7,411 bases of DNA. Origin: a virus. Taxonomy: Duplodnaviria > Heunggongvirae > Uroviricota > Caudoviricetes. The notes under the pieces are model-generated. The model was given only the letters and a program-made list of their open reading frames with translations. It had not been told where the DNA came from and ran no database searches. Shown one piece after another: positions 795 to 7,154 of the stretch. Each line of letters begins with the position of its first letter. The stretch's first letter is position 1. Position numbers and translations under genes: made by a program. Where the stretch lies: the IMG/VR virus record IMGVR_UViG_2698536341_000008. One strand, written 5' to 3'.

Positions 795-1661
795 TTAATT
801 AATAGCATCTTTGCTCTGAAGTACAGCAAATGCCATTAATACCTCTAAAGTATATCGTCTATAAAACTTAACGAATCCAACATAAAAAACATAGACGAAG
901 AAAAAGCTAAGTAGCGTCGAAATAGAAATATAAGACACCGCCCCACCTTCTATAGCACGATAAATTAATGTTAGAAATGATATCCAAAATGTAATTACAA
1001 ATACTAAACAAATATTTCTGCAAAAACCATATAATGCAACATAGTTTTGAATTTTTGTTTGATGTTGATTAGAAAATTCATAGACGTAATGATAAGCCAA
1101 TCTGAAAAGATCATCATGAAGACCTGTCCTGATGTTTAATAATTTATCGTCTATTCTGAATTTTTTTTCATAACCTTCTTTGATCATTAGCCATGTGGTA
1201 TTAGCTAATTGAAATGGCAATGATTGTGAATAACATAGTTTTTGAGTGGCGTAATCCCATGGTATTATCGGGAATAACATTACTTTGATTATGCAGTATT
1301 TTATTTTTCTCTTTGTGTCTTCGTTCTGTTTGTCACTTGATGGTGTTAAGACGTTTTTTTTGTCATCTGATAACTTATTAAATAGATATTCTGACGGATA
1401 TTGCAATTCTTCGTTCATATATTTTTCAATAAAAAATGCGGATGTGATAGATATAAAGTGTCCAGCTATGTAAGATATGATTACTATTGAACCATAGTTC
1501 AAAATGCCAAAGATTTGACTTTGACCTCTGAGCAATTCAGTTAAGTCAATAACAATATCTAGATCGAATGTCAAACCACAGAAATACATTAATAGGATAA
1601 AAAAACCACCTGGTATTAAATATCCAAGAAAGTCATAGAATGAGAATGGATTTTGATTCAT
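795..1661 (-). CDS. Integral membrane protein of unknown function (about 288 aa, two N-terminal and two C-terminal hydrophobic helices flanking a ~140-aa soluble domain); AT-rich moron
   Basis: Long minus-strand ORF. ATG at 1661 with GGAGAG 5 nt upstream (track start 1685 is TTG). Four hydrophobic segments, e.g. FLGYLIPGGFFILLMYFCGL, IFGILNYGSIVIISYIAGHFISITSAFFI, LYGFCRNICLVFVITFWISFLTLIY, ISISTLLSFFFVYVFYVGFV. GC content roughly 25-30% versus about 50% in flanking genes. Confidence 0.7.
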   Translation of the reverse strand: MNQNPFSFYDFLGYLIPGGFFILLMYFCGLTFDLDIVIDLTELLRGQSQIFGILNYGSIVIISYIAGHFISITSAFFIEKYMNEELQYPSEYLFNKLSDDKKNVLTPSSDKQNEDTKRKIKYCIIKVMLFPIIPWDYATQKLCYSQSLPFQLANTTWLMIKEGYEKKFRIDDKLLNIRTGLHDDLFRLAYHYVYEFSNQHQTKIQNYVALYGFCRNICLVFVITFWISFLTLIYRAIEGGAVSYISISTLLSFFFVYVFYVGFVKFYRRYTLEVLMAFAVLQSKDAIN

Positions 1662-1769
1662 TGTTGCTCTCCAATAATTTTTCAATTTGTAATATAACCT
1701 ATATCTATATGTTAATAAATTACTTATATGTTCTTTTATGGCAGAGTTTGAATTCGTACGTGCTGATTT

Positions 1770-2294
1770 TTACGACTCAGTTAACTCTTTAAAGCGTTCC
1801 ATAAACATCCCATAGGCATGGCCTGGCGACAGTGGAATAACTTTGAACATCTCTGTTGCCGGGATACCTTCCAGTACAGGCCAGAAAGAGCCATCATCAA
1901 GCCCGAGATCGCGGCGTTCGGTTGCCAGCATGATGAGATCGGCATATTTCACAGGCGTGCTCATAACCGTGGGTAACCCGTATTTCTCACGGATTACGGC
2001 GTCTATTTTTTCTTCCATCCGTTTATAGTCAGGAAGAAGACGTTTCAGCGGCGTGGGGATGTCCTGGCAATACGCTTCTGTTGCATCATGCATTAACGCT
2101 TCAAAAGCAAATTCCTGCGGCACCAGCTGGCTGCAAAGCACCGCATGTTGGGCGACACTGTAGAAGTGTGAAAGATGACCGGCAAAGCGACAGATATTTG
2201 AAAGGGAAACCGCGATATCGTTAATCACGATGTCGTCTTTATTTATCCTGTCATAATAAAAATGCTTCCCGGAAAAAGTTTTAATAAATGACAT
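1770..2294 (-). CDS. HD-domain phosphohydrolase, YfdR-like 5'-deoxynucleotidase family (prophage-encoded)
   Basis: HD signature ...FEALMHDATEAY... plus upstream His-containing motif (RFAGHLSHFYSVAQHAV). ATG 2294 (MSFIKTF...) has GGAG 6 nt upstream; track start 2324 is GTG, 10 codons further up. Family recalled from memory. Confidence 0.7.
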   Translation of the reverse strand: MSFIKTFSGKHFYYDRINKDDIVINDIAVSLSNICRFAGHLSHFYSVAQHAVLCSQLVPQEFAFEALMHDATEAYCQDIPTPLKRLLPDYKRMEEKIDAVIREKYGLPTVMSTPVKYADLIMLATERRDLGLDDGSFWPVLEGIPATEMFKVIPLSPGHAYGMFMERFKELTES

Positions 2295-2387
2295 TTTGTT
2301 CTCCGCGTATATGTGCTGCACCACGCTGAATTCTGGTAAAAGGAAGCCCTCACCATCCGGCGATTATTGAGTCAATTACGTTTCCAT

Positions 2388-2421: not shown

Positions 2422-3246
2422 TCAGGCGGTGAAAGTACCAATAAAGGTTTCTACTTTGCTGTCTTTGAATTTCTCAACAAGCAGATCACGAAATTCGTTA
2501 GCCATTTCTTCCTGCACCGCCTCCAGCTGAATAATGCGCAGAACCAGTACAGGACGATCGCCAGTGATAATGCTGAGGCGTAATTTAAATGGACGTTCTT
2601 TCAGACCTTCAAACGGAACGCATTTAAATTCAAATGCCACTGGCATAATATCTTTGGTTTTCGCTTCGACAGACTCCATCAGGGAGCGTTTGCCGCTGAA
2701 GTCATTATCTTCAAAATCAGCGGTCTGGTTTGCTTCAATCGTGATTTTACGGACAGCCGCAGCCGCTTTTGTTGCCTGAATAGCGTCACCATTAGCATCA
2801 AAGCCCACAAGGTAGTCGGCCCAGTCTTCAATCCATTCTGCCAGTGACTTCTGGGAATGACGCTCGCCATTAACAGACAACAGAGCAGAGAACGGTGCTG
2901 TCTTTTTCAGTTTGAGAGTGGCAGTGTTATCTGCGTGACCTGGCTCATCAATAGTACCCAGGTTAAGCACACTGACGGCACGCATATTATCGGCATCGAT
3001 AAAGCAGCGGGTGCCTTCATCTGCAAGATCTTTAGAATAACGAGTAAAGTCATCGATGCTGGCAGTGGAAAGCGCACCACGGAAACGGAAACGATTTAAA
3101 TTAAATTTTTCCAGATCATGAATGCGGAAATTCTCAGGCAATGCCACAGCATCGGCACCAATCTTACTGATAATTTCATTAACACCCTGAGCAGAAATAA
3201 GGGCATGGATTTGATTAATTGCGGTTGCGTCTAAGTTCTGAGACAT
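2422..3246 (-). CDS. DUF2303-family prophage protein, YfdQ-like (274 aa)
   Basis: Uninterrupted 274-aa ORF; ATG 3246 with GAGGA 6 nt upstream. Length and sequence resemble my memory of E. coli prophage protein YfdQ; function unknown. Confidence 0.65.
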
Positions 3247-3311: not shown

Positions 3312-3674
3312 TTAATGACCTGCTGCGCGGAGTTTTCCGTCAGGTTCACCGGCAAGAGTCAGTAATTGTCCCTGGTCTTCCTGCAGAATAGTCAGGCGAC
3401 CACCGCGATTGACATACATCGGCGTTTCGGTGGTGTCTTCTTCGGAAATTTTCCCGCGGTTAGTCGGGCGAACATATGAGAGTTTGTGTTTGATTTTCAC
3501 ACGGTTCTCATCAAATGGTTCGATTTCCAGGTTGAGCGAGACCTTACCTTTGGTTTTCGTATTCATCACACCGGAAGCGACTTCACTGAGAACAGCGCCG
3601 ATTTTGGTTTCAAATACGCCGCCGTCCAGCTCCCCGATAAATGCCTGCACATCAGTACTGCGTTCGCTAGCCAT
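3312..3674 (-). CDS. Hypothetical prophage early protein, 120 aa (first gene of the leftward operon; YfdP-like size and position)
   Basis: ATG 3674 (MASERSTDVQAFIGELDGGVFETKIG...) with GAGGAG at 3682-3687 and a 7-nt spacer. The ORF-track extension to 3860 adds a Cys/Arg/Gly-rich, non-protein-like N-terminus with no RBS and is treated as leader. Confidence 0.7.
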   Translation of the reverse strand: MASERSTDVQAFIGELDGGVFETKIGAVLSEVASGVMNTKTKGKVSLNLEIEPFDENRVKIKHKLSYVRPTNRGKISEEDTTETPMYVNRGGRLTILQEDQGQLLTLAGEPDGKLRAAGH

Positions 3675-3722
3675 TTTGCTGCTCCTCATCATATCGACCC
3701 TGCAAGGTCGGTTGGTTTCTCC

Positions 3723-3811
3723 ACAAAACAGAGAAGAACACCTGCGGTGGCAGCCGCCCGGATGGATTGGGTTATGAGCCCGTCGGCCGGTGATGCTCTT
3801 CTCTGTTTTGT
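3723..3811. repeat. 15-bp perfect inverted repeat (ACAAAACAGAGAAGA ... TCTTCTCTGTTTTGT) forming a long stem with a 59-nt structured loop
   Basis: Read directly: 3723-3737 is the exact reverse complement of 3797-3811. Lies immediately downstream (minus-strand sense) of the leader terminator U-tract and about 35 nt upstream of the RBS of the 120-aa gene. Confidence 0.8.
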
Positions 3812-3857
3812 AAAAAGAGCGGTACCAGCCGGAAGCAAGTGTACAAACTGGTACCGC
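3811..3857 (-). terminator. Candidate intrinsic terminator inside the early-left leader (10-bp GC-rich stem GCGGTACCAG/CTGGTACCGC followed by UCUUUUUA on the minus strand)
   Basis: Perfect 10-bp inverted repeat 3819-3828 / 3848-3857 with a 19-nt loop; plus-strand A-run 3811-3818 gives the U-tract on the minus-strand transcript. The loop is longer than in typical terminators, so efficiency is uncertain. Confidence 0.5.
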
Positions 3858-4288
3858 CAAAGCAGTGGCTGTTGTGGTGACCGGTGCTGATCTCCGGCTT
3901 GCGGTTATTTCAGACTCTCACGGGCGTTTAATTGCCCCGCCGAACAGCTCTTTTCCGCAATAGCTGCAATGTCTTTCGCGCATCAGCCTGCGCATTCACC
4001 ACAACGCTGAGAGCACTTAGCCAGTTACGGCACCACACTTTGTCGCGGTTCCATAAATGCCCTCATCGTTGCACCCTGGTCTCTTCCCAGGTGTCAAACC
4101 GAACCGCCACGCTGGTTAGGCGTCTTATCAGCATCATCATTGACTTGCACATTCCGGCTACCTGGTTTGTTTGCTCGAGCAAGGAGTGGATTGTCCCCTT
4201 TAACGTCCCCAGACCGCTAACGACGCATGTGCCATACGCCGTGTTACAACCAAATTTTGTTAGTACCTTGTTTGTTTGTCTGGAAAGA

Positions 4289-4341
4289 AAGATAAAATGA
4301 AGTTGCGCATTATGCAAGTGTTTTTATTGCGAGATATGCAA
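4289..4341 (-). promoter_or_regulatory. pL-like early-left promoter with two operator-like 15-bp sites (OL)
   Basis: Two copies of TTGCG-N5-(A/T)GCAA-type imperfect palindromes at 4303-4317 (TTGCGCATTATGCAA) and 4327-4341 (TTGCGAGATATGCAA), matching a site in the cI-cro intergenic region (5110-5124). On the minus strand: -35 TTGCAT (4312-4317), 17-nt spacer, -10 TATCTT (4289-4294). Confidence 0.45.
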
Positions 4342-4354
4342 TTTAAAGGGTAAT

Positions 4355-4376
4355 GAAAAGCCACCTTTGGGTGGCT
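4355..4376 (-). terminator. Intrinsic terminator downstream of the repressor gene
   Basis: Stem AGCCACC (4359-4365) / GGTGGCT (4370-4376), loop of 4 nt, followed on the minus strand by UUUUC (plus A-run 4355-4358); 20 nt past the repressor stop codon. Confidence 0.6.
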
Positions 4377-4396
4377 AATTGATGAGGAGGTAAGGG

Positions 4397-5089
4397 TTAA
4401 TTGTGTCGCTTAAGGGTTTGTGACTGGCTGATTAAGACCTTTCCAAAGACCATAAACCGGTGTTCATTTTCGCTGGTAATTCCCCATTCACGGTAAATCT
4501 GGTTATCAGAAATCACCAGTAGTTTGTCAGGTATCATTTGCAGTCGTTTGACATAAATTTTATCATCAAAACCAAATACATAGATACCATCTCCATCAAA
4601 CTGATTGATACTGACATCAACGAAGATGAGATCTCCTGGCTCAATGGTTGGACACATACTGTCCCCACGAACGTTGATAACTTTAATGTGATTGGCTGGC
4701 CGTCCGCCAAACATCGATACAGCATTATCAGTTCTGTATTCAATGGCATGAATCACATCAATGACATCACCGCCCTGGATAAGGCCATTTCCCGCACTGG
4801 CACTGACATCCAGCATTTCAATACGGAATACATCCTTCACCTGCGCAACATCCTCACTAATACTGTTTTTAAATACAGTATTACTTTTGACGTCTGAGGT
4901 AAAGAGATCAGCAATATCAACACCTAAGCTCCTGGCAATATTACTCAGGGCTTGTTCAGTGAATTGTTTCTGCTTACCTGTTTCCAGGCGTGAGATATTC
5001 GCCGCATCCACTCCTATTGCTTCAGCGAGATCGGCGATTTTCATGTTCTTCGCCTGGCGAAGTTGTCTGACTCGGTTTCCTATGTTCAT
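4397..5089 (-). CDS. cI: CI/LexA-type prophage repressor: N-terminal XRE-family HTH plus C-terminal S24 peptidase (autocleavage) domain, 230 aa
   Basis: N-terminus IGNRVRQLRQAKNMKIADLAEAIGVDAANISRLETGK resembles 434/P22 repressor HTH. C-terminal domain carries the Ser/Lys dyad motifs GDSM (..VRGDSMCPTIEPGDLIFVD..) and ..YVKRLQ.. / ..FGKVLIS... Candidate Ala-Gly cleavage site in the linker (SASAGNG). Divergent from the cro-like gene. Confidence 0.9.
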   Translation of the reverse strand: MNIGNRVRQLRQAKNMKIADLAEAIGVDAANISRLETGKQKQFTEQALSNIARSLGVDIADLFTSDVKSNTVFKNSISEDVAQVKDVFRIEMLDVSASAGNGLIQGGDVIDVIHAIEYRTDNAVSMFGGRPANHIKVINVRGDSMCPTIEPGDLIFVDVSINQFDGDGIYVFGFDDKIYVKRLQMIPDKLLVISDNQIYREWGITSENEHRFMVFGKVLISQSQTLKRHN

Positions 5090-5186
5090 GCGTTTATTAC
5101 ATTTCTTTATTGCGCGTTAAGCAAATCAACTTGCGCAAAATATTTGCGTGAAATAATATGCTCATCACGCAATATGTGGAGGTAAT
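5090..5186. promoter_or_regulatory. Divergent PRM/PR-like promoter-operator region between repressor and cro-like gene
   Basis: Operator-like site TTGCGCGTTAAGCAA at 5110-5124 plus TTGCG repeats at 5131-5135 and 5144-5148. Candidate PR: -35 TTGCGC (5131-5136), 17-nt spacer, -10 TAATAT (5154-5159). GGAGG (5178-5182) precedes the cro ATG. No Shine-Dalgarno precedes the repressor ATG. Confidence 0.6.
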
Positions 5187-5447
5187 ATGCAATCACCATT
5201 ACGGAATGTGCGTAAGACGCACGGATTTACTTTGCAGCATGTTGCTGCTGGCGTTCAGGTCAATCCAGCGACGCTGAGTCGTATTGAAAGACTGGAACAA
5301 ATTCCATCTATCGATCTTGCAGAACGTCTGGCCAATTTTTTTAAGGGTGAAATCAGCGAAATGCAGATTCTTTATCCGGCACGTTTTCAATCTAGCCAAA
5401 ACCAGAATGGGTTTAAACCACAGGAACAGGAGGTAAGCCGTGGGTAA
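5187..5447 (+). CDS. cro: Cro-like XRE-family HTH regulator (86 aa)
   Basis: HTH segment FTLQHVAAGVQVNPATLSRIERLEQ; GGAGG 4 nt upstream of ATG; divergent from the repressor; 3' end overlaps the next gene start by 8 nt. Confidence 0.8.
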   Translation: MQSPLRNVRKTHGFTLQHVAAGVQVNPATLSRIERLEQIPSIDLAERLANFFKGEISEMQILYPARFQSSQNQNGFKPQEQEVSRG

Positions 5448-5997
5448 TCATAACTGGAAAGTGGAAAAACAGCCTGAGTGGTACGTGAAAGCTGTCAGAA
5501 AAACTATCGCGGCGTTGCCGGAGGGTTACGCTGAAGCTGCTGAGTGGCTGGATGTAACAGAGAACGCATTATTTAACCGCCTTCGTGCCGATGGCGATCA
5601 GATTTTCCCGCTGGGATGGGCAATGATTTTACAACGTGCTGGTGGCACTCACTTCATTGCTGACGCTGTGGCGCAGTCTGCAAATGGCGTCTTTGTGTCT
5701 CTTCCTGACGTCGAGGATGTGGACAATGCCGATATTAACCAGCGTTTACTGGAAGTCATTGAACAGATCGGCAGTTATTCAAAACAGATTCGTTCAGCAA
5801 TCGAAGACGGTGTAGTGGAACCGCATGAGAAGACAGCAATTAACGACGAACTGTATCTTTCAATTTCGAAGCTCCAGGAGCATGCAGCACTGGTCTACAA
5901 AATCTTCTGCGCTCCAGAAAATAGTAACGCCCGCGAGTGTGCAGCTCCGGGCGTCGTGGCGTCGATTGCTTCTGGTTGTGGAGAAACTAACGCATGA
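5440..5997 (+). CDS. CII-position regulatory protein (185 aa) with HTH-like segment; function inferred from position only
   Basis: GTG start 5440 preceded by AGGAGG (5428-5433) with a 6-nt spacer; translationally coupled to cro upstream and to the next gene downstream (ATGA overlap at 5994-5997). HTH-like stretch AEAAEWLDVTENALFNRL. Family not confidently recognised. Confidence 0.6.
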   Translation: MGNHNWKVEKQPEWYVKAVRKTIAALPEGYAEAAEWLDVTENALFNRLRADGDQIFPLGWAMILQRAGGTHFIADAVAQSANGVFVSLPDVEDVDNADINQRLLEVIEQIGSYSKQIRSAIEDGVVEPHEKTAINDELYLSISKLQEHAALVYKIFCAPENSNARECAAPGVVASIASGCGETNA

Positions 5998-7154
5998 ATA
6001 GTTTAACGGCAAATAACCGTTTGTCGCAACAGCTGGTGGTCAGCGTCGCTGAACACCTGTTGTTACGGCATGAATGCAGATTACCAAATCACCTGGCTGT
6101 AAGTAACCACAGAGAACTTTACCTGACTGTGGGGGGCGAGTTGTGCAGGAACTTAACCGCTGGTTTCGTGACGGAAGAGGGCTTTATGTCCATGTTATTC
6201 GTTGGGAGCCAGAAACACAGCGCGTTATCTATCTTCGCAAAGACTACCCGCATGAGTGCTTTAGTCCTTTGTGGAAATTCAGGCGTGATTTTGTTGAGTG
6301 TGAAGGACCACCAGCATATTGATTCTGCAATTCCGGGACGTTACACTGCTCAGGCACCTTATAAAGCGGGTGCCGGGATTGGCGTCCTGAAATTGTCAAC
6401 GGCGATGTATGACGCGCCAGCGTCTTTTTTATCGTCCGCATTTGCTCACATCCAGATTATGGTGGGCTGGGCGGGGGCACCGAAAGGTGCGCCGGTCTCC
6501 GTTGACGCCGGTTACGCCAACCCCGTCCAGTTCACCACCAGTGAAATTGGCGTTTCCGGTGGTGGAAGTTTTTCACTGTCAACGGAGGCTGCCATCATGG
6601 CTACGATCCCAGCCCTCACTCAACCTGAAATCACCATTGACAACGGCCAGGCCGTTACCACTTCTTTGGCTGTTGCCAACTTCTTCTCCAAGCGTCACGA
6701 CGATGTGCTGAAAAAGATCCGCACTCTGGATTGTTCCCCAGAGTTTTGTGCCCGCAATTTTGCGGAGACATCGATTTCGGTAAATCAACCGAACGGTGGT
6801 ACACGCAAGCTCCCTTGCTATCAAATCACACGAGACGGTTTTGCGTTTCTTGCTATGGGTTTCACGGGTAAACGTGCTGCCCGGTTCAAAGAGGCATACA
6901 TAAATGCCTTTAACCAGATGGAGAAACAGCTTTCAAAGCCCGCTGTACCGAGCGACGTTGCACATAACGCCAGCGTTCTCTGTTCCTACATTTCATCAAT
7001 TCATCAGGTCTGGCTGCAGCAGCTTTATCCTATGTTGGCAAAAGCCGAATCTCCGCTGGCTGTTAGCTTATATGACTATATTAATGATGCTTCGGCGCTG
7101 GCCTGTCTCATAAATTTGTCGCTGAACCCTTCAGAGGTAAGGGGGCGCAAATGA
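5994..7154 (+). CDS. Rha-family phage regulatory protein (Rha domain in residues ~202-310) with an unusual ~200-aa N-terminal extension; alternative start at ATG 6597 would give a 186-aa Rha-only protein
   Basis: Rha signature as I recall it: TQPEITIDNGQAVTTSLAVANFFSKRHDDVLKKIRTLDCSPEF...YQITRDGFAFLAMGFTGKRAARFKEAYINAFNQME. ATG 5994 overlaps the upstream stop (ATGA). Frame 0 stays open with strong G-first periodicity over 6323-6596. A near-perfect internal RBS (GGAGG 6584-6588, 8-nt spacer) precedes Met-202 exactly at the Rha domain start. Confidence 0.6.
   Translation: MNSLTANNRLSQQLVVSVAEHLLLRHECRLPNHLAVSNHRELYLTVGGELCRNLTAGFVTEEGFMSMLFVGSQKHSALSIFAKTTRMSALVLCGNSGVILLSVKDHQHIDSAIPGRYTAQAPYKAGAGIGVLKLSTAMYDAPASFLSSAFAHIQIMVGWAGAPKGAPVSVDAGYANPVQFTTSEIGVSGGGSFSLSTEAAIMATIPALTQPEITIDNGQAVTTSLAVANFFSKRHDDVLKKIRTLDCSPEFCARNFAETSISVNQPNGGTRKLPCYQITRDGFAFLAMGFTGKRAARFKEAYINAFNQMEKQLSKPAVPSDVAHNASVLCSYISSIHQVWLQQLYPMLAKAESPLAVSLYDYINDASALACLINLSLNPSEVRGRK

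Follow-up and report, generated by a model that had tools for sequence, protein, structure and literature searches.

The put RNA of phage HK022 acts in cis on RNA polymerase, at its beta' zinc-binding domain, and suppresses pausing and termination. It is an element of about 70 nucleotides (nt) formed by two open adjacent stem-loops (V shape), which begins at or close to +1 and has copies at both pL and pR (PMC9378689), and a put-like mechanism was raised by Casjens and colleagues for a group of phages that lack N (PMC12315714). Other structured prophage RNAs, GOLLD and ROOL, are of uncharacterised function, often lie next to tRNA genes and are possibly co-transcribed with them (PMC5737381). 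Here, a 7,411 nt stretch of phage DNA (IMG/VR record IMGVR_UViG_2698536341_000008), called the window at its full length, was analyzed. The window is the immunity region of an Escherichia coli lambdoid prophage of the mEp460/SfV/ST64B type, and the subject of this work is the gap (3675-4396) between its cI-like repressor gene and yfdP, the first gene of the early-left operon. At least four conserved structured RNA modules with covariation fill this gap on the minus strand, one of which is a cloverleaf RNA termed E1. Like HK022 put, E1 is a phage RNA element in the early leader of a lambdoid phage without N, upstream of terminators. The gap is tentatively read, at close to an even chance, as a leftward cassette of stable structured RNAs in the pL leader, with a conserved terminator that limits entry into yfdPQR.

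Between the start codon of yfdP (ATG at 3674) and the stop codon of the repressor gene (4397) nothing is annotated by RefSeq/PGAP. The open reading frames (ORFs) of the gap, one of 122 amino acids on the plus strand and three of 84, 49 and 36 amino acids on the minus strand, have no Pfam match and are broken or interrupted by stops in diverged homologues, where yfdP remains open over its full length at 48-67% amino acid identity. A first-pass annotation of the same DNA had described the region as free of credible ORFs, richer in GC than its neighbours and dense in perfect inverted repeats. All three descriptions hold: the GC content is 0.53-0.555 over 3600-4200 and 0.38-0.47 on either side, and two perfect 10 nt pairs and one pair of 25 nt arms were found as inverted repeats. 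A conserved protein, a divergent N-like protein included, was looked for as well, and no conserved ORF is present in the gap. The slot of N is indeed empty, as had been noted, since the first gene is yfdP, which has neither a Pfam match nor an arginine-rich N motif. Local folds in the gap (X1, X2 and the terminator hairpin, see below) are 5-7 standard deviations better than those of shuffled sequences. When the whole window was scanned with Rfam at gathering thresholds, isrK and C4 alone were obtained, both outside the gap, and permissive scans of 3500-4500 and 3800-4100 gave chance-level matches only. Rfam 15 was further applied to 28 related loci, where tRNAs were found and modules A, X and E1 matched no family. 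No tRNA was detected in the gap by ARAGORN or the Rfam tRNA model, and a verbatim sequence search in the literature gave no match. Of the checks that had been proposed for the region, the Rfam scan shows that the gap matches no family, and the analysis of covariation across relatives shows that the helices of E1 and module A are kept by compensatory changes. Among the options first considered, an unrelated, novel non-coding RNA is the one that stands, with at least four covarying modules of which none reaches an Rfam 15 family. In the direction of leftward transcription the features of the gap are as follows:

4359..4376, minus strand: intrinsic terminator of the cI-like repressor gene (AGCCACC-CAAA-GGUGGCU followed by UUUUC), from a terminator scan, directly after the repressor stop at 4397
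4303-4317 and 4327-4341: OL, two operator-like palindromes TTGCGN6GCAA, from a pattern search
4289..4317, minus strand: putative pL, read from the sequence (-35 TTGCAT at 4317-4312, 17 nt spacer, -10 TATCTT at 4294-4289)
4075..4242, minus strand: module A, structured RNA of about 170 nt, from homologues and alignment A5
4001..4072, minus strand: module X1, long imperfect hairpin GCAACGAUGAGGGCAUU ... AGUGCUCUCAGCGUUG enclosing a small hairpin (fold -42.3 kcal/mol, z -5.6)
3871..4005, minus strand: E1, cloverleaf (four-way junction) RNA, from covariance model R1, covariation and the minimum free energy fold
3811..3858, minus strand: hairpin of the intrinsic terminator type followed by CUUUUUA (fold -21.2 kcal/mol, z -4.8)
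3720..3814, minus strand: module X2, 23 bp stem enclosing a three-way junction (fold -47.3 kcal/mol, z -6.8)
3682..3712, minus strand: small hairpin (3712-3693) and Shine-Dalgarno sequence GAGGAG (3687-3682) ahead of the yfdP ATG at 3674

E1 consists of a closing helix P1 of 7-9 bp, a 3 nt junction, the hairpin P2, a variable arm and the hairpin P3, which is stacked on P1. In the window P1 is formed by GUUGUGGUG/CACCACAAC, P2 is GCGCA-GGCUGA-UGCGC (3993-3978), followed by the variable arm, and P3 is GCCGG-AGAUCAGCA-CCGGU (3898-3880), which abuts P1. The loops of P2 and P3 are complementary to each other (GCUG:CAGC). The first homologues that were aligned had conserved ends, a variable middle and compensatory changes. 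E1 ranges in size from 78 to 369 nt, and the arm lengths of the minimal 78 nt form are near those of a tRNA. Covariation was quantified in two sets. In alignment A2 (86 viral sequences) 94.7% of the cells are paired and double changes occur in 11 of 22 pairs; in alignment A4, an independent set of 110 matches from loci in bacterial genomes, 95.4% are paired, with double changes in 14 of 18 pairs. None of 500 shuffles reached the score in either case, and slid controls gave 25-52% and 30-53%, respectively. A covariance model (R1) built from 27 short E1 copies, from which the copy of the window was left out, found a single copy in the window at 3872-4004 (61.2 bits, E 9e-15), and the minimum free energy fold of this copy reproduces the cloverleaf. 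G.U pairs are common in E1, so that the sense strand is the minus strand of the window. In one locus (L099, 3978-4026, plus strand) the variable arm of E1 holds canonical tRNA D-arm and T-arm sequence and no anticodon arm, which gave a partial match to the Rfam tRNA model (34 bits).

With this structure at hand, E1 can be set against put. E1 is a closed four-way junction with a P1 of 8-9 bp, whereas put has two open stem-loops and no closing helix; E1 lies about 275 nt from the putative start and, by model R1, occurs once only, on the pL side, whereas put is present at both promoters; and E1 is also found outside operon leaders. A short-word blastn comparison of window 3601-4400 with the nun-cI-cro region of HK022 yielded only chance matches of 9-15 nt, and putL, read from the HK022 genome, matches the gap neither in sequence nor in architecture. 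The proposal that the leader holds an HK022-type put RNA was therefore abandoned, as similarity, architecture and a pR copy are all missing.

Module A (alignment A5, 13 sequences) comprises the hairpin H1, a long-range stem around the invariant GGUAGCCGGAAUGUGCAAG, the hairpin CCUGG-GAAGAGA-CCAGG and in total five helices including a candidate pseudoknot, in which the hairpin loop CUAACCA can pair with a downstream GGUU. In the lineage of the window this pseudoknot carries the compensatory change CACC/GGUG to AACC/GGUU. In A5, 98.3% of the cells are paired, double changes occur in 9 of 28 pairs, and none of 500 shuffles reached the score. Homologues of module A are located in the trnI-ban spacer of phage P1, upstream of tRNA-Arg in phiV10 and Tyrion, in L028 (a relative about 70% identical) and elsewhere. 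Module X is a recurrent long imperfect hairpin with the consensus CACAACAGGUAAGAGCAUU, a variable insert and AGUGCUCUUUCCGUUGUG. Its support rests on a few clearly compensatory variants (e.g. GAAAUCUGG/CCAGUUUUC and GUUAUCAGG/CCGAUAGUU) and on folding energy; the comparison of cognate with non-cognate stem pairing (9.97 vs 8.80 pairs of 13) discriminates weakly, because most copies share their sequence. The 3' strand of X1 overlaps the 5' strand of E1 P1 by about 4-6 nt. X2 is kept alongside yfdP in SfV, ST64B, L026 and L028. Its arm at 3781-3769 (minus strand) reads GGGCUCAUAACCC with a CAU loop, which we take to be an exact copy of the initiator tRNA-fMet anticodon stem-loop, down to its three G-C pairs. 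A similar motif, ACGGGNYCAUANCCCAAUC, is present in the X inserts of P1-like and other phages, with the CAU and the G-C pairs kept.

The first-pass annotation had placed the repressor terminator and the operators near 4290-4376. Both are present, with the operators corrected to 4303-4317 and 4327-4341; a third TTGCGN6GCAA lies at pR (5110-5124), and ST64B has the same operator type in the same place. Transcription from pL would start at about 4281. A terminator-like hairpin at 3811-3857 on the minus strand, ahead of the first gene, had also been reported, and this observation is strengthened here. It has a 13 bp stem (3858-3846 with 3830-3818), a 15 nt loop and the tract CUUUUUA (3817-3811), i.e. 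a GC-rich hairpin followed by a U-run on the transcribed strand as expected of an intrinsic terminator; the automatic scan missed it because of its loop limit of 8 nt. A hairpin with a U-run was found 23-166 nt upstream of the yfdP start in all nine diverged yfdP-linked loci scanned, with stems that differ and covary, and by inspection a terminator also precedes yfdP in SfV and ST64B. Loss of the hairpins in relatives, which would have spoken against the element, was looked for and they are conserved. A terminator kept with covarying stems is a selected feature, and something must permit its passage, so that, judged from the sequence, read-through or antitermination is a genuine issue for these phages. 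The order of the leader is conserved too. In L028 and L026, each about 70% identical to the window, the promoter and operators are followed by X (preceded in part by A) and E1, the terminator, X2 with its CAU-loop arm, the small hairpin, the Shine-Dalgarno sequence and yfdP; L064 keeps the terminator and has no X2; in SfV and ST64B the order is unchanged, and the E1 is a variant (type 2). The small hairpin of the window at 3712-3693 folds no better than shuffles (z -0.6).

Several observations on the terminators of relatives were made in passing. A conserved GCUGUGUGAAGUC lies just upstream of the leader terminator in L028, L064, L026, SfV (L132) and ST64B (L251), and an unpaired GAAGAUAAUGUUCUG is conserved inside the terminator hairpin of these loci and shared by many of the hairpin loops in the nine diverged loci. 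Together, these motifs could mark a regulated terminator; the window has neither of them, and its terminator loop is short. ST64B carries an extra terminator-like hairpin with a U-run (GGCGG...CCGCCAGCUUUUU; L251 2085-2135, minus strand) early in the leader, upstream of X and type-2 E1, and L026 likewise has an extra terminator-like hairpin in the early leader.

Sensitive BLAST searches against phage genomes resolved the gap into a mosaic of blocks, each with a history of its own. The block 3675-3860 travels with yfdP (SfV, ST64B). The block 3870-4018 is 96% identical to part of the P1-like phage RCS47, and its two ends, of about 30 and 44 nt, recur in lytic Klebsiella, Escherichia and Salmonella phages with an identity of about 90% or more. 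The block 4078-4255 has matches in P1, in the spacer between tRNA-Ile and ban, and in phiV10-like phages, upstream of tRNA-Arg. In P1, RCS47, typing phage 9 and swi2 the matching blocks adjoin tRNA genes and lie on the tRNA strand, which corresponds to the minus strand of the window and the direction of pL; in Magnus, Klebsiella phage 6991 and Tyrion they are located in gene-poor stretches without an annotated tRNA.

The 22 nt core of E1, GUGAAUGCRCAGGCUGAUGYGC, is present exactly in at least 120 IMG/VR contigs. Representatives of 117 bacterial species carry it too, nearly all of them in a single copy, which is what prophages would be expected to show. The bacterial hosts are Enterobacterales, Burkholderiales, Pseudomonadales, Xanthomonadales, Oceanospirillales, some Alphaproteobacteria and a few other metagenome-assembled genomes. 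In 120 of 128 instances the 3' hairpin GCCGG-AGAUCAGCA-CCGGC follows 45-520 nt past the core, and directly after it comes a strand complementary to the 8 nt before AAUG. A tRNA on the same strand lies within 400 nt of 17 of the 103 unique viral E1 copies, and an antisense tRNA of none. According to a clustering of neighbouring ORFs in 224 loci, E1 follows a cI-type repressor gene of the same strand in about 41, the position it has in the pL leader of the window; in 23 it is promoter-proximal in the late leader, between Q antiterminator genes and holin/endolysin; and yfdP/Q/R follow it in 13-14. In the lytic phages swi2 and Klebsiella 6991, X and E1 lie on the strand opposite to the flanking structural genes. 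Many E1 copies begin 6-8 nt past a -10-like hexamer, and many are followed after about 30-90 nt by an intrinsic terminator and sometimes by a fresh promoter. Neither E1, X nor A was found in the Q-essD region of the K-12 prophage DLP12 (IpeX). The modules can be separated: of 208 loci, 47 have an X ahead of E1 and 12 have an A. The idea of one large RNA made up of A, X and E1 was rejected, as the modules co-occur in a minority of loci.

Two individual loci deserve mention. In phage P1 (L004, AF234172) the leader of the ban operon holds two copies, at 3778-3877 and 3495-3616 on the minus strand of this locus: one of E1 (73 bits), antisense to the junction of the upl and plp ORFs, and one of type 2 (22.5 bits), between tciA and upl. 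X hairpins are present as well, and module A is located between tRNA-Ile and ban. Both upl and plp are hypothetical ORFs, which may have been called as by-products of these RNA genes. In L129 an abiF RNA motif (RF03085, 55 bits; 1269-1305, plus strand) directly follows an E1 copy (1165-1265), and a strong promoter with operator-like repeats comes next.

Among catalogued RNAs, the closest relative of E1 appears to be STnc100 (Rfam RF02076), a small RNA (sRNA) of gammaproteobacteria. Model positions 31-147 of STnc100 match the type-2 E1 of ST64B with 35.1 bits (E 3e-6), which is below the curated gathering threshold of 47 bits, and the E1 of the window (301 nt query) is not matched at E<=10. Conversely, the E1 model detects type-2 copies weakly (20-22 bits). 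The layouts are alike: STnc100 has a closing helix caUGGUG/CACCAug, a GAAU junction, a 5' hairpin, variable hairpins and a 3' hairpin CCGGG-AGGCA-CCCGG that abuts the closing helix. The P2 and P3 loops differ, being AGGCUGAU and AGAUCAGCA in E1 but GuGCGG and AGGCA in STnc100, and the loop-loop complementarity is specific to type 1 E1. The type-2 variant of SfV, ST64B and P1 resembles STnc100 at sub-threshold scores. From the shared layout and this weak cross-detection, E1 looks like a sister class of the prophage sRNA STnc100. The dimensions of E1 (P1 of 7-9 bp, 3 nt junction, an arm of 4-5 bp with a 6-8 nt loop, a 5 bp arm stacked on P1) are further reminiscent of tRNA, its loops can pair like the elbow of D-loop and T-loop, and it is co-located and co-oriented with tRNA genes; however, it has no D-loop or T-loop consensus and is missed by ARAGORN and the Rfam tRNA model. 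CCA follows P1 in 28 of 103 copies, which is an enrichment but far from universal and thus makes no case for aminoacylation or CCA-dependent processing. In its cloverleaf topology and tRNA-like dimensions E1 also resembles bacterial tRNA mimics such as the tRNA-like domain of transfer-messenger RNA and YrlA. A YrlA-type Y RNA was considered because of the D- and T-arm sequence in one variable arm, and it was rejected since the motif GNCGAAN0-1G is absent.

The C4 antisense RNA of P1/P7 (RF01695) is processed by RNase P from a longer early transcript and resembles E1 in its long closing stem around two hairpins, of which one is GCCGG...CCGG. The loops of C4 pair with an mRNA target, though, while those of E1 pair with each other, and the C4 model matched neither E1 nor anything in 3500-4500, its single true match being at 6455-6542. 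Modules A, X and E1 occur in the same context as GOLLD and ROOL, in phages of Proteobacteria, and differ from them in having no Rfam match, in being separable rather than one obligate fold and in their host range. Discrete RNAs from promoter-proximal, terminator-bounded leaders of operons under antitermination control are exemplified by lambda 6S RNA, StxS (PR'-tR') and DicF (early operon). The 23 E1 loci between Q and the lysis genes have the position of 6S and StxS; there is no sequence relation, and DicF, StxS and related families were not detected by Rfam. Word-level resemblances to hammerhead, twister, hepatitis delta virus-like, cobalamin and signal recognition particle RNAs were discarded because no Rfam match backs them.

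The preferred reading of the gap as a cassette of stable RNAs would work as follows. Once the repressor is lost, pL would transcribe module A, X1 and E1, and most polymerases would halt at the terminator (3858-3811), giving an RNA of about 470 nt. The long X stems would probably allow this RNA to be cut into smaller stable pieces, with RNase III and RNase P as candidate enzymes. The fraction that reads through would carry X2 as a 5' untranslated region and express yfdP-yfdQ-yfdR. The same modules are found in the tRNA islands and Q-to-lysis leaders of other phages, so that they behave like portable RNA genes and not like a regulator dedicated to this operon. The contexts of E1, too, agree better with a portable RNA gene than with an obligate regulator of the operon that follows. 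Its most likely mode of action is in trans, or as a self-contained RNA, with a conserved component of the host as its target. For ST64B, Owen et al. (PMC7067206) report that prophage-inducing stresses lead to strong expression of the non-coding RNA STnc1310 and of two genes downstream of the CI repressor, which agrees with a leftward transcript of the homologous leader that reads through into the homologues of yfdP and yfdQ. Several points weigh against this reading. The putative pL is a weak match to the consensus (7/12) and was not called by the consensus promoter scan; STnc1310 was placed on the ST64B leader by description, not by coordinates; and the promoter, the processing and stability of the RNAs, a trans action and the target of E1 are predictions from the sequence. 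The orientation of flanking ORFs shows no downstream bias, which speaks for an autonomous E1: the longest downstream ORF lies on the same strand as E1 in 119 and on the opposite strand in 64 of 183 loci, and the longest upstream ORF in 117 and 60 of 177. This test is crude, however, since only the longest ORF is taken and GC-rich genomes contain shadow ORFs. Lastly, the order of an E1-type RNA, a terminator and an operon in lambdoid phages without N is equally expected of a cis-acting antiterminator.

This leads to processive antitermination in cis, in which E1, alone or with X, would fold on the nascent transcript and bind the polymerase or a host elongation factor, so that the polymerase reads through 3858-3811 and later terminators, replacing N/nut by an RNA unrelated to put. 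We regard this as possible but unlikely. The family lacks N and a put-like mechanism has already been raised for it (PMC12315714); an E1-type RNA, type 1 or 2, always precedes the conserved terminator and yfdP in the window, L028, L026, L064, SfV and ST64B; many E1 copies lie at the extreme 5' end of transcription units; and a 22 nt core identical across distant Proteobacteria would fit a conserved host machine such as RNA polymerase. Set against this are the lack of any likeness to put in sequence or architecture, the single E1 of the window with none on the pR side, the stand-alone copies opposite to neighbouring genes in lytic phages and the roughly one third of copies that face a convergent downstream ORF, as well as the 23 loci in late leaders under Q control, where an RNA antiterminator is unneeded, and the copies that are followed by a terminator and then a fresh promoter. 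Least likely of all, and largely refuted, is a classical nut site (boxA/boxB) on which an unrecognised N-like protein would act, or else a small gene overlooked in the gap. Here CGCUCUUUUUA resembles boxA, and the GenBank record of mEp460 has two hypothetical ORFs annotated in the gap. The boxA-like flank followed by a 15 bp stem that had been noted initially is literally there as a string (CGCTCTTTTTA), but it is the 3' strand of the terminator stem plus the U-tract, and the next stem has 23-25 bp. The string is also not conserved, reading CGUCCUUUUUA in SfV, where the block is 96% identical and this string nevertheless differs, CGCCCUCUUUUUA in L028 and GGGCACCUUUUUUAC in L026. A conserved single-stranded boxA (CGCUCUUUA-like) was thus not found. 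In place of a boxB, a 5 bp hairpin with a purine-rich pentaloop, there is the 23 bp stem of X2, and yfdP rather than an arginine-rich N-like protein comes next. A nut-like site acting without N, as had been suggested, fails on the same grounds. The commonest 3' strand of X, AGUGCUCUUUCC (e.g. L007, L008, L015), contains UGCUCUUU, presumably the first 8 nt of rrn boxA. An rrn-type boxA was nonetheless rejected, as this strand is base-paired and varies (UGCUCUCA in X1 of the window, UGUUCUCA in P1). Neither boxA-like string is therefore conserved, both being base-paired or U-tract, and for a small gene there is no conserved gap ORF, Pfam match or PGAP call.

Two further explanations take the modules either as a switch or as a relic. 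As a regulated attenuator, the terminator itself, or a competition of the X1 stem with E1 P1 for one GUUGUG, would be switched by a ligand, a tRNA or a protein, so that early-left expression follows a cellular signal. The overlap of X and P1 (about 4-6 nt), where the CACAAC of X and that of P1 compete for the same GUUGUG, would provide such a competition, the GAAGAUAAUGUUCUG and GCUGUGUGAAGUC motifs at the terminators of relatives point to regulation, and module A and E1 look like ligand- or protein-binding RNAs with their conserved loops and multiple helices. We consider it improbable, as the window has neither terminator-associated motif, the modules occur without any terminator in other phages, and no alternative pairing was found that would break the terminator stem before it forms, the sole competitor being downstream of the terminator. 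A decayed phage tRNA island, i.e. pseudo-tRNAs and spacer hairpins carried along by recombination without present function in the prophage, is suggested by the modules that flank real tRNA genes in P1, RCS47, phiV10-like phages, swi2 and many IMG/VR contigs, by the pieces resembling T-arms and anticodon arms in X inserts and by the E1 variable arm with D- and T-arm sequence (partial tRNA, 34 bits). This is very improbable in our view, given that covariation keeps the helices over hundreds of diverged copies, that the 22 nt core is exact in phages of alpha-, beta- and gamma-proteobacteria, that at least 80% of the stretch is present in 808 of 5426 complete E. coli genomes and that tRNA searches miss E1. 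A more speculative idea, which we hold to be rather unlikely, makes E1 an unrecognised class of tRNA-shaped phage RNA whose invariant kissing-loop core docks on a universally conserved host machine. It could be a cis antiterminator on RNA polymerase, the third after put and EAR, or a decoy resembling a tRNA and aimed at a host enzyme or defence nuclease that acts on tRNA, the initiator-arm copy of X2 having a related role.

The gap is a common element of its host species: part of 3600-4400 is matched in 3020 of 5426 complete E. coli genomes, and at least 80% of that stretch in the 808 genomes given above. The genes that surround it in the window are:

1770-2324, minus strand: yfdR, early-left operon
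2422-3246, minus strand: yfdQ, early-left operon
3312-3674, minus strand: yfdP, first gene of the early-left operon (ATG at 3674), followed by yfdQ and yfdR
4397-5089, minus strand: cI-like repressor with helix-turn-helix and peptidase S24 domains (stop at 4397)
5187-5447, plus strand: cro-like gene
5440-5997, plus strand: CII-family gene
5994-7154, plus strand: Rha/antirepressor gene, with isrK and C4 RNAs (6354-6542) ahead of its Rha part

The last of these is a 386 amino acid ORF assigned to the Rha family by PGAP, inside which Rfam places isrK (6354-6430, 62 bits) and C4 (6455-6542, 81 bits). The Pfam match to Phage_ASH covers amino acids 117-212, exactly over the isrK/C4 RNAs, and the Rha domain begins at amino acid 222. 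The Rha protein therefore probably starts near 6597, and Phage_ASH may, at least in this window, be a translated RNA gene. At 795-1685 (minus strand) lies an AT-rich (28-32% GC) ORF of 296 amino acids, membrane-like and with a sub-threshold Pfam match to SieB (superinfection exclusion), which adjoins a PrtN-family gene (473-829) and is probably a moron.

For the phages of the ST64B/SfV/mEp460 type, which lack N and for which the question of early-left expression has been raised in the literature, the slot of nutL and N holds conserved structured RNAs and, after them, a conserved terminator, and the question can now be reduced to a few concrete deletion and transcription experiments. If E1 were indeed loaded onto the polymerase, this would explain how lambdoid phages without N pass the conserved leader terminator. 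E1, module A and the X hairpins appear to be unannotated RNA families, carried by P1-like phage-plasmids, by lytic Klebsiella, Escherichia and Salmonella phages and by prophages of alpha-, beta- and gamma-proteobacteria, often next to tRNA genes. Their annotation would clear spurious small ORFs from phage records, and the modules may be the proteobacterial counterpart of the GOLLD/ROOL puzzle.

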